Source: a virus (Duplodnaviria; Heunggongvirae; Uroviricota; Caudoviricetes). From it: DNA of 14,815 bases. The DNA is taken from IMG/VR virus record IMGVR_UViG_2778261464_000012, positions 1-14,815 of that record; one strand, 5' to 3'. Numbering within the stretch: position 1 is the stretch's first letter; each line of letters opens with the position of its first letter. Shown here piece after piece: positions 1,444-14,815 of the stretch. Both the position numbers and the translations under genes were made by a program. The notes under the pieces are model-generated. The model was not told the origin of the DNA. It ran no database searches and saw only the letters and a program-made list of their open reading frames with translations.

Positions 1444-4302
1444 TTATTTATGAAGATTGTAGTACTCTATATATAGTCCTAATCCTCTTAGTACTTCCCC
1501 GCTATAAAAGCCAAAGAACATACTATTGTTTTCTGCCGTAGTTGGAGTACCAGAACGTATAGCGGCTGCCCACGTACCATTCATTACATGATTTGACGTG
1601 ATTACCTCATAATAACTTTGTACTTCATCAAACAACATTTGTATTAACTCATCATCTGGATAACCAGCAATTGCCATAGAACAAGCACCTGCTAACCATA
1701 GTCCTGACATATGAGGGGTAAATCCATCATAAATTACTTCACCATTGTTTTTGAAACGTGTTGGTGCATGACCATCATTATTTTTCATAAACCATTTCAA
1801 GTAATTCATCCAGTTTTTACAGTACTGAATTATATTAGAGGGGATTGCATAATCACCACGTGACCATAATTCATATACTACGTTACATCCTGCATAGAAT
1901 GCACGTGGTTCATAACCAGACCAAGCCTCTGAATACCAGTGATCCATAATGAATGTATCTACTTTCTCACCTGCTGGTAAGTACGCTAATGCGTCCTGAC
2001 GGTTCCATACAAACGCCTGAGCACATGGACCTGGTACAGTAGGATGAAATTTATTAGTAAACCCGTCCTGTGAATCACATAAGAACTTGATACTATTATT
2101 TAGTCTTACTGTATCAATAGTAGTTCCTTTAAAACACCATACTGTAGGTAATTGGTAGCCCGGATACGGAAGACCACGCCAGCCAGAATATAACTGTGCA
2201 TATGGATCTGTAATGTTACTGAACGGTATTAGACCGGGAGTATATGCAAGGCTATCTAACATATAGTCTCTGATAGTACAGTTACCAAGACGTGCCGTAT
2301 AACCACTATCAGTACTGTCATTGAATGTTAAATTAACTAGTACAGAATAGTCACCAGTACCGCCATCGTTATATAGTTCTGGTAGATCGTTTATACAGTA
2401 CCAATCTATACGCCCTGAAACGCCGTCTATCGGGTCATCATCTAATAGTAAGGTAAAGTCCTCTAGTTGTGTTAATGTCACTGCTGCGGGCTGCTCATCG
2501 CCTTCTACGTGGTTTGGTTGATAACTGTTTAGTTTAAAATCTAACTGCGTTAAATCTTTAGTTACCCATTCACCACCACTAGCAGGTAACATAGTCCACC
2601 ATCTCCAACCATCTGGATCGGTAACACGTAAGTTAAAGTCATCATTATATGTACGATAGGTGAATGATTTTAAATCTTGTCTCTCATCGTCATAGATATA
2701 GAATCCTACAACCATCCCGCCGTCACCATCCATAGTACTGGTGATTACGTTGTCATAGTACTTACCAGCTATTCCAGATACATACTCAAACCTAGTGACA
2801 GTATTAGAACCATAATCAGAGACATTACGCATATCTGCGGTTAGGTATTCACCACCATCAGGACGTTTAACACGGGTAAAGTGATTCATTGGTACATCCA
2901 TTACCGTAATAGAACCATTTGGGTTAGTATTTGGAATACCGCAACGGTATAGTGTTGAACCCTCTTCTACTTTCGTCTTATTCACTGTCATTTTAACAGC
3001 GAGTCCTAGAGCTACACCAGTAGTATCAACACCGCCACATTCAATATGGAATTTTGAGTTATTATTAAACTTAAACCAAATTGATTGTTGTTCTAGGGTA
3101 GTCTGTGCTGATGCACTTTGATTAATTACAATATAACCTTCGGCATCACGTGAATAAGTTGCAATTCGATCACTTGGGTAGAAATAATCATATGAAATAC
3201 CATCAGTGAATGGCGTTGTTGCAATTGTACTCTTACGGAAGAACATATCAAATCTATCAATATCTGAATAACCATAACAAGTAAGTAGTGAACACTGCCA
3301 CGCTAGATAGTGTTTACGTTCCCCTGTAATATCCCATAGCATTTTAGATGCAAGACAGAACCACAATTCAGCATCTGATGCATTATCAGCGAAATCAAGA
3401 CTACCGTAATTATCAATTGGTACGTTTACCGGGCGGTTGTGCCAACGTTCATTACGTTTAAACATATAACCGCCATGTTCTACGGGGTTACGTGTTGCAT
3501 AGTTGAAACGGTAATTACCATTAATAGAAGTATCTTTAAGCTGTACTGTACCGATCTGGCTTGTTATTCCCTGTTCCAGTACATCACCGTTACTGTCAAC
3601 CTTGCGGCCTGTACGGTCGATAATCCAATCTACATCATAAGTTGGTGCTTTGGTCTTCCAATCAGTTGTACCGTCTTCTAACCACATATATGCAGTTGCG
3701 TTAACTTGGTTCCAACCTAGTGATGCACGTTCTGGAAAGGCGAACCATACAGCGTCCAAGTACTCACCATAGTTTGGAGCACCAGAAGGTATCTTAGTTT
3801 GTCCATTTACCCAATTGAATAACACCCCTTTAAAGCCGCCATGTGTCGGATATTCGGGATCTAGTGGGTAGTTTGCCAGTACTGGAGCCTTACCATTACA
3901 AATCCAATTACAACGTAATGCCGTACTTGGTGGATCTGGAAATGGTACACCACGATAGAATGCTAAATGATATGCATCAAAATATTCTTTTGCTTTCTCT
4001 AGATAGTATGGTTCTTTAGTTGCTTGGTAGCAGTGAATAGCACCTAGTATTTGTAGGGATTGTCCTTCGGTAGTTGCATCACCATCTGGTTGTGCTTCCC
4101 ACTGAGTTTGTGCGATAAAGTGTCTATTGTTTGCAAGTACATTATCTGGATTTAAAACATAGTGCTGAGTTTTATTATCGGTTGTTAGTCCGGTGTTTCT
4201 GGCGAGGAACTTAAATTGCCCCTCTACCATTTGATACGCGTTATCTAAATTGTGTTTTCTAATCATTAGTGTAGATCTGCCATTAGTAAGGAGCCGAACC
4301 AC
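1444..4302 (-). CDS. Large (about 940-952 aa) Trp/Tyr/Cys-rich protein of unknown function; possibly a virion-associated carbohydrate-active enzyme
   Basis: Long uninterrupted ORF in the operon strand. Start is ambiguous: GTG at 4302, or ATG at 4266..4264 overlapping the upstream TAA (TAATG coupling). Composition and motifs (GQSLQILGAIHCYQAT, WYSEAWSGYEPRAFYAGCNVVYELW, GLWLAGACSMAIAGY) look like a globular enzyme rather than a fibre or sheath; this is inference only. Confidence 0.8.
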   Translation of the reverse strand: MVRLLTNGRSTLMIRKHNLDNAYQMVEGQFKFLARNTGLTTDNKTQHYVLNPDNVLANNRHFIAQTQWEAQPDGDATTEGQSLQILGAIHCYQATKEPYYLEKAKEYFDAYHLAFYRGVPFPDPPSTALRCNWICNGKAPVLANYPLDPEYPTHGGFKGVLFNWVNGQTKIPSGAPNYGEYLDAVWFAFPERASLGWNQVNATAYMWLEDGTTDWKTKAPTYDVDWIIDRTGRKVDSNGDVLEQGITSQIGTVQLKDTSINGNYRFNYATRNPVEHGGYMFKRNERWHNRPVNVPIDNYGSLDFADNASDAELWFCLASKMLWDITGERKHYLAWQCSLLTCYGYSDIDRFDMFFRKSTIATTPFTDGISYDYFYPSDRIATYSRDAEGYIVINQSASAQTTLEQQSIWFKFNNNSKFHIECGGVDTTGVALGLAVKMTVNKTKVEEGSTLYRCGIPNTNPNGSITVMDVPMNHFTRVKRPDGGEYLTADMRNVSDYGSNTVTRFEYVSGIAGKYYDNVITSTMDGDGGMVVGFYIYDDERQDLKSFTYRTYNDDFNLRVTDPDGWRWWTMLPASGGEWVTKDLTQLDFKLNSYQPNHVEGDEQPAAVTLTQLEDFTLLLDDDPIDGVSGRIDWYCINDLPELYNDGGTGDYSVLVNLTFNDSTDSGYTARLGNCTIRDYMLDSLAYTPGLIPFSNITDPYAQLYSGWRGLPYPGYQLPTVWCFKGTTIDTVRLNNSIKFLCDSQDGFTNKFHPTVPGPCAQAFVWNRQDALAYLPAGEKVDTFIMDHWYSEAWSGYEPRAFYAGCNVVYELWSRGDYAIPSNIIQYCKNWMNYLKWFMKNNDGHAPTRFKNNGEVIYDGFTPHMSGLWLAGACSMAIAGYPDDELIQMLFDEVQSYYEVITSNHVMNGTWAAAIRSGTPTTAENNSMFFGFYSGEVLRGLGLYIEYYNLHK

Positions 4303-5948
4303 GTACTACCACCATCATAAGAAACAAACTGGAATACATCTGTTGAATCTTTCGTAAATGTCAGTACTGGTACACGCCCATAAGACCATAAAATTGAATC
4401 AGGCCATGATATTTTATTTGCCCCTGTGCCTTGTTTCATAGCTACAGTGAAAGATTGAGTATTCTTACTATTACCACTTGCGTTAACAATGGTAAAATTA
4501 GTTGTTCCTGCTGATAGTGTAACAGTGAATGCAGTCTTACTATCTGATAAATCAATCTCTAGGCTAGTGCCTGTGAGTGTATTTAGTGCTAATAGATCAT
4601 CTACAATTGTTACTTTTGTATCAATATTGGCTTGTAATACCTTGTCTTTATCATCAATTTGTTTCTTTGAATATGTTCCAACATCATCATAGTTCAAAGT
4701 AATATCACTGTTTAGGGCATAGCCATTAATACGGGTGATACGTAGTGCAAATAGATCATTTGATTGGGTACGTGAGTACACATCTGAAATATCTGCGGCT
4801 ACAAGTTGAATGTTAGTACCAGTAAGTGCCTTGTTATTCACTAAGAATGTTTTAGGTACAAAAGTACTGTTACTATAGCTTAGACTTGCCATATCGGTTA
4901 GTTGTGCTGCACCTAGTGTAATATTCCCACTTAATGCCACGCCGTTAATCGTCTGAGTCTTTGCAACAAAGTTAGTATTAGTTTGTGTCTGTGAGTACAC
5001 ATCTAAAATATCTGCCGCAACCAAGTTTAATGAAGTACCAGATAGTGCATGACCATTTAACTGAAATACTTTTGGAACAAATGTATTAGTGATATAAGTT
5101 TGTGAGTACACATCAGAGATATCTGCGGCTACAAGGGTAATATTCCCCGTTAGCTGTTTACCGTTTATTGTCTGTGTTTTTAGTACATAGTTATCTAGGC
5201 TTGCACTGGAGGCTGCACCAAGTTCTGTTAGTGTTGGTTTATCTGCACTTGTATAGACTTTGTACCATGCACCCATAGATGTTCCGTAGTTACGGACGTT
5301 TATAATTGGTGTACCAGTTTTACTAATTACTAATTGAGTACCAAAGTTTGTATCAAGATTATTAATACCTAGAACATCAGTACCAGTTGGTGAAGTAGTA
5401 GATGGAATCTTAATAAATCCGTTACCGTCGCGTTCTTGCCAGCTTGGGAAAGTAGTTCCATTAGAGCCAACGCCATAATCACCACGGTTTAGCGGTACTG
5501 TAGTTTCATCAAGTATACCAGCACTTACTAATGCAGTTGGTGCAAAGGTATATGTTTTAGTTACTACATTATCATAACTACCAGCAGTTGATGTAGATGT
5601 AAGAACACCGTTATACATTGCATATGGAACGGTAGTATCATCTGCACCTTCATCTGGCATTTCAATTTTCATCTGAACTTCTTCACCAGAAGATACTAAA
5701 TCATCTAGAAATTGGTGTACGGATGGAACCCAATTAACGGTGATCGTTACGTCATTATGAGACATATCACCAACTTCTTTAGCCATAAATGTAGAATTAT
5801 ATGGTTCAATTGAAGTAACTTGTGTGGTAGCACCTACTACTGGAAATGAAGCCAGCTTTTCAACTTGTTCAAATGCTTTTGAATTTGGATCGGTATTAAG
5901 TGTGTTAGTATTAATCCACACTGTTGTGTAGTTAGTTAAGAATGACAT
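4266..5948 (-). CDS. Tail protein (560 aa) with tail-tube-like N-terminal domain and tandem fibre-like repeats
   Basis: Residues about 25-145 align with the 156-aa tube protein (EKLASFPVVG / EKVAAFPAVAG; ITVNWVPS / LTVNWIPG; TKTYTFAPTALVS / REYTFVVTGAPVAS). Residues about 255-423 contain four to five repeats of about 36 aa (KTQTINGKQLTGNITLVAADISDVYSQTYITNTFVP and variants). Confidence 0.8.
   Translation of the reverse strand: MSFLTNYTTVWINTNTLNTDPNSKAFEQVEKLASFPVVGATTQVTSIEPYNSTFMAKEVGDMSHNDVTITVNWVPSVHQFLDDLVSSGEEVQMKIEMPDEGADDTTVPYAMYNGVLTSTSTAGSYDNVVTKTYTFAPTALVSAGILDETTVPLNRGDYGVGSNGTTFPSWQERDGNGFIKIPSTTSPTGTDVLGINNLDTNFGTQLVISKTGTPIINVRNYGTSMGAWYKVYTSADKPTLTELGAASSASLDNYVLKTQTINGKQLTGNITLVAADISDVYSQTYITNTFVPKVFQLNGHALSGTSLNLVAADILDVYSQTQTNTNFVAKTQTINGVALSGNITLGAAQLTDMASLSYSNSTFVPKTFLVNNKALTGTNIQLVAADISDVYSRTQSNDLFALRITRINGYALNSDITLNYDDVGTYSKKQIDDKDKVLQANIDTKVTIVDDLLALNTLTGTSLEIDLSDSKTAFTVTLSAGTTNFTIVNASGNSKNTQSFTVAMKQGTGANKISWPDSILWSYGRVPVLTFTKDSTDVFQFVSYDGGSTWFGSLLMADLH
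4680..5186 (-). repeat. Tandem in-frame coding repeats of about 105-110 bp (4-5 copies) inside the 560-aa gene
   Basis: Near-identical DNA blocks are visible, for example GTGAGTACACATCTGAAATATCTGCGGCTACAAG near 4770, GTGAGTACACATCTAAAATATCTGCCGCAACCAAG near 4995, and GTGAGTACACATCAGAGATATCTGCGGCTACAAG near 5105. They correspond to the protein repeats ...LVAADISDVYSQT.... Confidence 0.7.
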
Positions 5949-6688: not shown

Positions 6689-13094
<6,406 letters not shown>

Positions 13095-13099
13095 ATGTT

Positions 13100-13303
13100 T
13101 TGTGTACATCTAAAATGTCACATACAATTGAAAGCAATCGGTGCCGAAAACTCGCGTTGATAATCAGGCTGGAGGAGTACCTAAATTATTAGTTTCACTT
13201 AATTAGGTTGATTAAAAGCACTTACATTTCATTTTACTTGATCATTATTACAATGTAACATTGCAAGCACATACACATTGCCGTTCAAGAAGGAATATCC
13301 AAA
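13100..13303. promoter_or_regulatory. Divergent intergenic control region; candidate location of cos and of the DUF3800-gene promoter
   Basis: About 200 bp non-coding stretch between divergently arranged terS and the DUF3800-like gene. It contains three TTGAT(A/T/C)A motifs and a direct repeat ACATTGC...ACATTGC just upstream of the plus-strand RBS. Exact promoter and cos positions cannot be fixed from sequence alone. Confidence 0.3.
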
Positions 13304-14425
13304 TTGGTAAAAAATGTCTACTTCGACGAATCAGGGTTTACAGGTAATAACTTACTTTCAAAAGATCAGCCTTTTTTTAGTTACGCTGCAGTCGTGACTG
13401 ATGAAGAGGAAAGTAAACAGTTTGTAGATTACATAATACAAAAGTACTCGATCGCAGCCGAAGAGCTAAAAGGTAGCACTCTCGTTAATAGCAAGAGATT
13501 ACAACCAGCCGTAGATGAGATACTTAATCATTTCCGTGGACGTATGCGTGTGGTTGTTAACGAAAAGAAATATGCCCTTTCAGGAAAATTCTTTGAATAT
13601 ATTTTCGAGCCAGTATTAGCAGCTAAAAGCTCAATATTTTACAACCTTAAATTCCACCTATTCATATCCAATATAATGTATTTTTCTTTAATAGCTAAGG
13701 ATGAGTATTCTGAACTATTGCATTCTCGATTTGAAGATTTTTCACGAGGTAAAATATTAGTTAATAGTTTTATCGAACCAGTTATTGGTACTAAAAACTC
13801 TGAAATTATGATGGACATTCATGATTTCGCCAAGCATAACATTTCAATAATTGAAGAGGAATATGAAGGTCTCGAGGGCACTGGGGTTGATAAATGGTTG
13901 TTAGATTTGACAACGACTTCTCTTTATAATCTCTTATGCGATATGAGTAGTAAGTTTGGTACATTGAGAGCTATATGTGATAGTTCAAAACCATTAATTA
14001 CCCAACAAGACGCATTCAATGAGATGATAGGTAATGATGAAATTGTGTTCGAGACCTTTAATAATAAAAAAATCCCGATCACATTCAAACTATCTGAGCC
14101 CATAATCCTTTCTGATTCTAAAGTCACGCATGGTATACAAATTGCTGATGTGATAGCTGCAGCCAGCATTTATGTGCTTAATAAGAAAAAATCGAAAGAA
14201 AGATATCACTCCAAATGGCTAACTCATTTCGAAGATGAGATTTTTTATTGGCAATGTTGTGTTGTTCCCACACCTGAAAATCTTGATCCTAAAAATGTAA
14301 ACAATTATTTGAACAGATATATATTGCAAGAAATTGCTGAACGAAGCAGAAAATCACTACCTGTTTTAGATGATATTGAAAAAGAAATCATGCGAATTTC
14401 CAGAACATTAGCCATGGTGCGTTGA
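13304..14425 (+). CDS. DUF3800-like protein (373 aa), function unknown; candidate phage moron / accessory gene
   Basis: The only long plus-strand ORF not antisense to a structural gene. TTG start at 13304 is preceded by AAGAAGGAA at about 9 nt. The N-terminus VKNVYFDESG and the C-terminal SKVTHGIQIADVIAAA match, by recall, the DESG and GxQxAD signature of DUF3800. It looks AT-richer than the structural genes by eye. Confidence 0.75.
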   Translation: MVKNVYFDESGFTGNNLLSKDQPFFSYAAVVTDEEESKQFVDYIIQKYSIAAEELKGSTLVNSKRLQPAVDEILNHFRGRMRVVVNEKKYALSGKFFEYIFEPVLAAKSSIFYNLKFHLFISNIMYFSLIAKDEYSELLHSRFEDFSRGKILVNSFIEPVIGTKNSEIMMDIHDFAKHNISIIEEEYEGLEGTGVDKWLLDLTTTSLYNLLCDMSSKFGTLRAICDSSKPLITQQDAFNEMIGNDEIVFETFNNKKIPITFKLSEPIILSDSKVTHGIQIADVIAAASIYVLNKKKSKERYHSKWLTHFEDEIFYWQCCVVPTPENLDPKNVNNYLNRYILQEIAERSRKSLPVLDDIEKEIMRISRTLAMVR

Positions 14426-14430
14426 AGTAT

Positions 14431-14473
14431 ATATCCTCATGCTATGTTATTAGCACCAGTAGCATGAGGATAT
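14431..14473 (+). terminator. Inverted repeat downstream of the DUF3800-like gene (possible terminator or protein-binding dyad)
   Basis: ATATCCTCATGCT (14431..14443) and AGCATGAGGATAT (14461..14473) form a perfect 13-bp stem with a 17-nt loop, starting 6 nt after the stop codon. A T-run (TTATTTTT) lies about 14 nt downstream, so it is not a textbook intrinsic terminator. Confidence 0.3.
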
Positions 14474-14815
14474 CATATGTAATTCAATTATTTTTACCAT
14501 GACCAATATATTTAATCAATTAATGATTTGACCTCAATAATTGTTTAGCTATATTAATACATTCTTGAATCCTTTCCTCGCGTATTAGACACGTAGTACT
14601 GCCATTGTCCATCTGGTAGATTGGATTATAGATGCGACCGCAATCACTCTGGAACTGAGGCCGGTAATACTTCACTCCGTTACGTGTAGTTGCCACTTCA
14701 GTACATCCCCAGCAATGAGCCGACAGCCGTGTATTTCTATCTGCGGCTGGATTTCCACTCCGAGCAACTGCCCATTAAGAGTCGTAATCGGTACAGCCCA
14801 GTACTGGATGTTCAT

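Follow-up and report, generated by a model that had tools for sequence, protein, structure and literature searches.

The terminase locus

The DNA that we analyzed, called the window below, is the whole 14,815-nucleotide (nt) stretch of the Caudoviricetes record IMGVR_UViG_2778261464_000012 in IMG/VR. Its minus strand carries an operon that resembles the lambda head module, with genes for the small terminase subunit (terS), the large terminase subunit (terL), a lambda-family portal protein and a protease-capsid fusion protein. The terS gene starts at position 13059, and a gap from 13060 to 13303 separates it from a divergent open reading frame (ORF) for a DUF3800 protein, which starts at 13304 on the plus strand. 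An initial annotation, based on the letters of the window, had described 13100-13303 as a divergent intergenic region, and this description is accurate. We found that the gap contains a conserved non-coding element at 13097-13183, on the terS strand, that is probably the cohesive-end packaging site (cos) of a lambda-style Enterobacterales prophage. The features discussed here are listed in Table 1.

The same annotation proposed a terminase of the Nu1/GpA type, and protein homology bears this out: the window encodes such a terminase. TerL matches the Pfam families GpA_ATPase (7e-50) and GpA_nuclease (3e-44). The terS product matches phrog_57 at 2e-17, and an hhalign comparison of the TerS family with lambda Nu1 gave a probability of 90% (E 1.7e-6, 107 columns). 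Every one of the top six PDB matches of TerS is a Nu1-type domain, from small terminases or RppC, and the TerS of relative L007 matches Pfam Phage_Nu1 at 6e-6. Terminases with a GpA-type TerL and a Nu1-type partner form the cos-cutting class that leaves 5′ overhangs.

Table 1 Features in and around the gap between terS and the DUF3800 gene
Feature	Position	Strand	Remarks
terL	10650..12563	minus	GpA-type large terminase; ATPase and endonuclease domains
terS	12478..13059	minus	Distant Nu1-type small terminase; N-terminal winged helix-turn-helix domain
Hairpin, 12-bp G+C-rich stem	13065..13094	minus	Followed by UUUUUU, then the terS AUG; outside the interval flagged initially
A+T-rich segment after cosN	13097..13138	minus	TATGTGA at 13118-13124; distal ACACAAAAC at 13097-13105
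Predicted cosN, GCG^AGTTTTCGGCAC^CG	13139..13155	minus	Positions predicted from the GCG-N12-CG pattern and the distance to GGT
Hypervariable spacer, 18 nt	13156..13173	minus	Fixed length; contains one TTGATAA
cosQ-like motif, TAGGTACTCC	13174..13183	minus	Consensus [T/A]A-GGT-W-C-Y-C-C; left edge of conservation
DUF3800-linked flank	13184..13303	plus	Occurs only in loci carrying the DUF3800 gene
Candidate DUF3800 promoter, TTTACT-18-TGTAACATT	13233-13262	plus	-35 TTTACT at 13233-13238; TGT and AACATT at 13254-13262
DUF3800 Shine-Dalgarno, AAGGA	13290-13294	plus	Followed by the TTG start
DUF3800 gene	13304..14425	plus	TTG start; cargo gene adjoining the predicted cos

A conserved element upstream of terS

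The element was found in an alignment of the sequences that precede terS in 52 IMG/VR relatives with 52-94% TerS identity. A hidden Markov model (HMM) of the family was searched with nhmmer, and column statistics and geometry were taken from 40 and 41 non-redundant copies, respectively. The element is about 87-90 nt long. The window and each of the 51 IMG/VR loci with sequence upstream of terS have a single copy, which always precedes terS and is on the same strand (E-values 3e-19 to 1e-4). An independent scan of bacterial genomes gave ten loci, all of which contain the element, and 17 metagenome contigs carry it as well, these being the true cases among 67 matches of a pattern scan. In about 20 loci an ORF of about 560 nt, in the opposite orientation, separates the element from terS. 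The element is kept there, as a position-tolerant DNA site would be.

Homology among the loci breaks off sharply to the left of the element. One left flank can be joined to different elements, and one element to different flanks. Therefore, the element is the left boundary of a packaging module that lies beside a mosaic cargo zone.

Read along the terS strand, the element consists of the motif [T/A]A-GGT-W-C-Y-C-C, an 18-nt spacer, GCG, a 12-mer, CG, an A+T-rich stretch, TRTGTGA, about 12 variable nucleotides and a distal motif. The G, G, T and C columns of the first motif are invariant or nearly so. Information content in the spacer is about 0-0.4 bits per column, and its first seven positions have a G+C fraction of 0.53-0.68, compared with about 0.2-0.3 in the flank. 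The spacers of the window and of relative L001 are totally different, though the DNA to the right of them is nearly identical. The 12-mer between GCG and CG is conserved in the family. As a pattern only, GCG-N12-CG occurs in 27-30 of the 41 elements, versus 0-6 at other offsets from 8 to 16, and in 28 of the 41 the predicted nick (GCG^) lies 29 nt from GGT (range 27-30).

On the terS side, TRTGTGA is conserved family-wide. The distal motif is CCCGAAACG or ACCCGCACCGCA where TerS begins with LAKQYGYDESTVR, and is different in the TerS class of the window. Such variation with the class of TerS DNA-binding domain, as judged by eye, is the behaviour that would be expected of a TerS-binding site.

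Some further candidates were considered and set aside. For a covarying hairpin after TRTGTGA, with arm pairs such as GGAT/ATCC and GGCAT/ATGCC, RNAalifold did not yield any consensus structure, and the arms do not share one register. Rfam returned sub-threshold chance matches only. The sequence GCGAGTTATC inside terS (13004-13013) is like the left part of the predicted cosN, but it is not conserved in relative L004 and was taken as chance.

Comparison with known cos sites

Lambda cos is composed of cosQ, cosN and cosB, with a segment called I2 between cosN and cosB (PMC4669245). The 7-bp cosQ is highly conserved, the CG pairs that flank both nicks are conserved, and the overhang's left half is under selection (PMC4669245). 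At the lambda junction, GGGTCCTTTCCGGTGATCCGACAGGTTACG^GGGCGGCGACCT^CGCGGGTTTTCGC, the GGT of cosQ lies 29 nt from the top-strand nick and the two nicks are 12 nt apart, so that the arrangement can be written GGTCC...ACG^GGGCGGCGACCT^CG.

The element in the window resembles this site in several ways. It lies directly upstream of a Nu1-type terS and a GpA-type terL, in the same orientation, and has a GGT-containing motif 29 nt before the position predicted for the top-strand nick. CG is found on both sides of a 12-nt segment, an A+T-rich segment with a TATG..AAAA flavour comes next, and homology among relatives stops on the cosQ side. By contrast, the overhangs (AGTTTTCGGCAC in the window and GGGCGGCGACCT in lambda) are unrelated, the left motif is GGTWCYC in the window family and GGGTCCT in lambda, and the spacer between cosQ and cosN is hypervariable in the window family. 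We regard 13097-13138 as a candidate equivalent of I2/cosB, a predicted binding region for TerS or a bending protein. A cosB in the window, if any, must be compact, perhaps like the simple cosB of N15.

Serratia phage vB_SspM_BZS1 has a 12-nt 5′ end, GCATTGCGCGCC, that was predicted by PhageTerm and then verified by the sequence of a PCR product spanning the cos junction (PMC7556043). This end is also annotated in the phage's record. In its junction, GGGTCCTTCCctgcacttttgtaaagcacgg^GCATTGCGCGCC^GCG, the sequence GGGTCCT places GGT 30 nt from the nick. Like the window, BZS1 combines a terminase of the GpA/Nu1 type with a 12-nt overhang and with GGGTCCTTCC upstream of the nick, and its terS begins about 75 nt past the end. 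The sequences of overhang and flank differ, however, and the TerL proteins are only about 26% identical. Moreover, BZS1 is a cultured myovirus with measured ends, whereas the ends in the window are predicted only.

A matrix of the left motif was also applied to the 41-kb genome of Escherichia phage HeidiAbel_Bas97, a GpA phage. The top match, first of 82,082 with a score of 13.6 versus 9.1 for the next, falls within the 164 nt that separate Rz from terS, at a distance of 28-29 nt ahead of the sequence that opens the related record of Klebsiella phage KA2-1. In both phages AAGGTACTTCCGG, which is nearly identical to the AAGGTACTCCGG of the window family, occurs 28-29 nt before a putative end (GGGGCATTGGTCC in Bas97, GGGGCAGTGCCAC in KA2-1), and CGCG or CGCA comes next. 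These ends are deduced from the start of the GenBank record, rather than documented. The right-hand block differs from that of the window family, whose matrix ranks it only 268th there.

We noticed an oddity in two GenBank records. Both PQ571296 (KA2-1) and ON853583 (MQ-4) open with a putative cohesive end, GGGGCAGTGCCAC in KA2-1 and GGGGCATTGACTC in MQ-4, and most of that opening sequence recurs about 60-70 nt before the end of the record, followed by unrelated bases. This suggests that the deposits have untrimmed or chimeric contig ends.

Proposed function of the element

We infer the following packaging mechanism, including cleavage itself, the exact cut positions and the assignment of proteins to sites. 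The Nu1-like winged-helix domain of TerS would bind the A+T-rich TATGTGA region between cosN and terS, and would thereby position the GpA-type TerL. TerL would make staggered nicks at GCG^AGTTTTCGGCAC^CG, between 13140 and 13141 and between 13152 and 13153, leaving a predicted 12-nt 5′ overhang, AGTTTTCGGCAC, that corresponds to 13141-13152. The virion chromosome would start with 5′-AGTTTTCGGCACCGATTGC... toward terS, and would end with ...ATCAACGCG (the right end is also written ...CCTGATTATCAACGCG). The motif TAGGTACTCC, 29 nt upstream of the top-strand nick, would act like lambda cosQ, terminating packaging at the next cos, and the 18 nt between it and cosN would be a spacer of fixed length but free sequence. 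The hairpin before terS and the DUF3800-linked flank would be features separate from cos.

The initial annotation had expected a cos within 13100-13303, but did not pinpoint a cosN. The location proves apt in that it holds a cos-like element, conserved among relatives, at about 40-125 nt upstream of terS, although the motifs that were highlighted are not its basis. A specific cosN can now be proposed by comparison among relatives.

If correct, this proposal gives a concrete cos assignment, with a predicted 12-nt overhang, for a widespread family of low-G+C Enterobacterales prophages that has no cultured representative. The position of cos would define the true genome ends and explain the mosaic cargo zone to its left. 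The rule of a GGT motif, 29-30 nt, a nick, 12 nt and CG is possibly useful for finding cos in other phages with GpA-type terminases. The biology would be that of ordinary lambda-style packaging, in a new instance of a well-known kind of site.

The ORF that is inserted between the element and terS encodes about 187 amino acids and is oriented away from terS. It occurs in L008-L012, L018, L026, L028-29, L034-37, L039-40, L046-50 and L052, and at 20739-21302 of L091. Its product has no match in Pfam or PADLOC. Given the proposed cos, this gene would come first on the virion chromosome, at its left end.

Alternative interpretations

Several observations weigh against our assignment. The whole-element HMM has no match in the cos regions of lambda, KA2-1 and Bas97 or in the first 3.7 kb of DCP80, which has the best TerL match but is uninformative, as its 141-kb record is classified as T4-like. 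With the matrix of the left motif, lambda cosQ ranks only 551st of 97,072. The predicted cosN is only 81 nt from terS, versus 178 in lambda, and nothing convincing was found by eye in the element for R-type repeats (R3, R2 and R1 in lambda) or the IHF consensus. There is no cultured relative with which to compare: a TerL query of the GenBank phage collection retrieved only relatives at ≤33% identity, and queries with the DNA of the region and with TerS gave no match among GenBank phages. Finally, contig ends were used as a proxy for virion ends in the IMG/VR loci, a viral pattern scan (25 matches) and the metagenome, and none lies inside the element. In two contigs the end is at one shared base, 5 nt past the element, but both are from a single sample and resemble an assembly bubble. 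This absence of termini is what would be seen if the phage had no fixed-end site and packaged by the headful (pac) mechanism, the element then being something else, e.g., a recombination site. However, one would not expect cos to form the ends of assemblies from bulk metagenomes and prophages, the terminase belongs to a cos-cutting class, and the position, orientation and geometry of the element fit cos. We therefore judge headful packaging to be highly improbable.

A different objection concerns where within the element the cut would fall. The block CGCGAGTTTTCGG equals lambda bp 13-25 (CGCGGGTTTTCGC) at 11 of 13 positions, and a matrix of the block ranks that lambda site, which adjoins cosN, sixth of 97,072. 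Based on the 11/13 match, we initially placed the cohesive end in the hypervariable stretch (about 13156-13167) that abuts CGCG, with CGCGAGTTTTCGG as the equivalent of the start of lambda I2. The terminase would then measure from the flanking motifs and cut regardless of sequence, such that each lineage would have its own sticky end. In agreement with this placement, KA2-1 and Bas97 carry CGC(G/A)TAATTCGCG directly after the putative overhang, and the first part of the spacer is G+C-rich within an A+T-rich region. We demoted it once the geometry of 29 nt and N12 emerged, and it now ranks second and seems unlikely to us. The left nick would then be only about 13-14 nt away from the cosQ-like motif, in contrast to 29-30 in lambda and BZS1, no conserved CG is present at that nick, and the GCG-N12-CG periodicity would lack an explanation. 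Moreover, unrelated overhangs at 94% TerS identity would need a nuclease without cut-site preference, unlike that of lambda (PMC4669245). Were the cut nonetheless to fall in the spacer, the sticky ends of near-identical phages would be private and mutually incompatible, forming a barcode of the lineage that would limit cos-mediated mixing or hijacking by satellites.

It is also conceivable, but unlikely, that the element mainly controls the late operon, as a late promoter or the site of an activator or antiterminator, with the hairpin at 13065-13094 as a terminator that is overridden, comparable to lambda pR′-qut-tR′. The terS gene heads the structural operon and its upstream neighbour is divergent, and therefore a late promoter must be close by or else transcribe into the operon across the cargo genes. 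Right before terS stands a hairpin that resembles a terminator, and the minus strand matches the promoter consensus at 13259-13231 and 13121-13092. However, the promoter-like matches number 9, compared with 8.1 in shuffled sequence, and the hairpin is limited to the clade of the window, while the element is family-wide. The loci with an opposite-orientation ORF between element and terS are also hard to accommodate, and a variable spacer of fixed length, together with the geometry shared with lambda and BZS1, has no promoter rationale. Late control is compatible with cos, as both functions could share the region.

The initial annotation had proposed that the region's repeated motifs bind TerS or a repressor, which we consider very improbable. 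The motifs are real. Three copies of TTGATHA are present on the plus strand (TTGATAA at 13157-13163, TTGATTA at 13208-13214 and TTGATCA at 13238-13244) and form a local cluster within 88 nt, although the motif was picked after inspecting the sequence. ACATTGC, which is part of a 9-nt near-palindrome (TTACAATGT/ACATTGCAA), does occur twice, at 13258-13264 and 13275-13281, with starts 17 nt apart and a spacing of 10 nt; the second copy ends 22 nt before the TTG start. Yet, in the window as a whole, both motifs are at chance level, with 14 copies of TTGATHA observed versus 11.9 ± 3.6 expected, and 5 of ACATTGC versus 2.55 ± 1.5. Conservation is also poor. In the closest relatives TTGATCA reads ATTATCA or ATTAGCA. 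It is lost, as is the first ACATTGC (there AATATCG), in L002 and L003, whose TerS proteins are 91-92% identical to that of the window. In the lineage of L034 and L091, TTGATTA is TTGCTTA, and TTGATAA falls in the 18-nt stretch that is wholly different between near-identical phages, including the window and L001. Of the five copies, four (two of the three TTGATHA and both ACATTGC) fall within the flank that was inherited with the DUF3800 gene, rather than with the terminase module, and L001 and L004 lack this DNA although their TerS is the same. In the candidate DUF3800 promoter, the -10 overlaps with the first ACATTGC, and the -35 and spacer overlap with TTGATCA. Thus, the motifs have no meaning as a set, and it is unlikely that TerS or a repressor binds them.

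A hairpin before terS

The hairpin that precedes terS has a fold energy of -20.9 kcal/mol (z -6.3). Half of its 12 base pairs (6) are G-C, a scan flags it as terminator-like, and its 3′ arm includes the Shine-Dalgarno sequence of terS, AGGAGG (13068-13073). It is confined to the clade of the window. In the sole divergent copy, that of L004, a change from G-C to A-U and two G-U pairs preserve the stem, and folding is better in the terS sense (-16.1) than in the antisense (-10.2), which points to a function in the terS-sense RNA.

In lambda, the intrinsic terminator tR′ is read through by Q. The hairpin in the window shares with tR′-type terminators and with leaders that sequester the Shine-Dalgarno sequence a G+C-rich 12-bp stem and a U6 tract upstream of the first late gene, as well as a stem kept in a variant by G-U pairs that work only in the sense RNA. 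Unlike in those systems, the U tract runs into the AUG and the Shine-Dalgarno sequence lies inside the stem. Also unlike them, the hairpin is restricted to one clade and the window has no identified antiterminator gene or promoter. We infer that the hairpin is probably a terminator and a translational lock that would keep the terminase silent unless late transcription reads through. Such a lock would prevent a lysogen from cutting its own chromosome at the prophage cos, and is compatible with a cohesive end in the spacer as well.

The DUF3800-linked flank and the cargo zone

The region was initially expected to hold the promoter of the DUF3800 gene as well, and we found a conserved candidate, predicted from sequence, that makes this plausible. 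The most conserved core of the flank, CAATGT[T/A]A[T/C]ATT, is kept in six loci. Relative L091 has TTTACA-18-TGTTATATT, i.e., (TGT)TATATT, which by its sequence is a good extended -10 promoter. The window version, TTTACT-18-(TGT)AACATT, is weak and under the threshold of the scan.

Within 13231-13262, the plus-strand promoter candidate nearly coincides with a promoter-like sequence on the minus strand, GTTACA-17-TAAAAT (13259-13231), such that each has its -35 where the other has its -10. L002, L003 and L091 retain both sequences. If active, the one on the minus strand would send a transcript of about 165 nt across cos to the hairpin.

The DUF3800 product matches Pfam DUF3800 at 2e-10 and phrog_12991 at 6e-117, and a PADLOC search gave no match for it. 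Six nucleotides past its stop codon is a perfect 14-bp inverted repeat, ATATCCTCATGCTA / TAGCATGAGGATAT, with a 15-nt loop (14431-14473). This repeat may be a terminator or insulator for the cargo gene. The terminator scan missed it, as its loop is longer than 8 nt and it lacks a T tract.

On the side away from terS, cos adjoins a variable cargo zone (13304-14815 in the window, 1-4614 in L132 and 21005-26401 in L090). The zone contains genes for DUF3800 and a RipA-like membrane protein, and the type VI secretion-related genes Hcp, DUF1493 and STM2901. Other relatives have unrelated genes at the same cos junction. A DUF3800 homologue adjoins cos in several lineages (L032, L153 and L034-37).

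Related prophages and other observations

The relatives are prophages of Rahnella, Buttiauxella, Enterobacter, Pluralibacter, Kluyvera and others. Positions 11021-14815 of the window are 99.9% identical to a degraded prophage of E. coli G3/10, which is interrupted by an IS3 element and sits in ybhA. In addition, 13170-13345 (176 nt) is identical in a 34.3-kb gut-metagenome contig, ERZ773150 NODE-687, that also encodes the same TerS, TerL and DUF3800 proteins as the window. The two annotated E. coli relatives have the same layout: one side of the gap has a serine recombinase and cargo genes, and the other has terS, terL and the remaining structural and lysis genes.

The decayed E. coli copies are L090 (G3/10, NZ_CP060075 3.42-3.44 Mb) and L091 (AREA_C483). 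IS3, IS5 or ISSen4 splits their terL, and G3/10 has lost the head genes. Even so, the segment from terS through cos to the DUF3800 gene is intact in these copies, with 99.9% identity to the window. The G3/10 copy is integrated in ybhA and the AREA_C483 copy next to yeaG, and the serine recombinase is at the far end.

Two observations concern other genes of the window. With its first ATG at 12563, terL overlaps terS by 86 nt (12478-12563). The corresponding overlap of Nu1 and A in lambda is far shorter, at 26 nt, and therefore the actual terL start may be further downstream. The products of 920-1390 (156 amino acids) and 4266-5948 (560 amino acids) have N-terminal regions that are similar by eye, with ...FPxVxG... 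and ...TVNWIPg/s in common. They look like two tail-tube-like paralogues, with a 952-amino-acid protein encoded between them.

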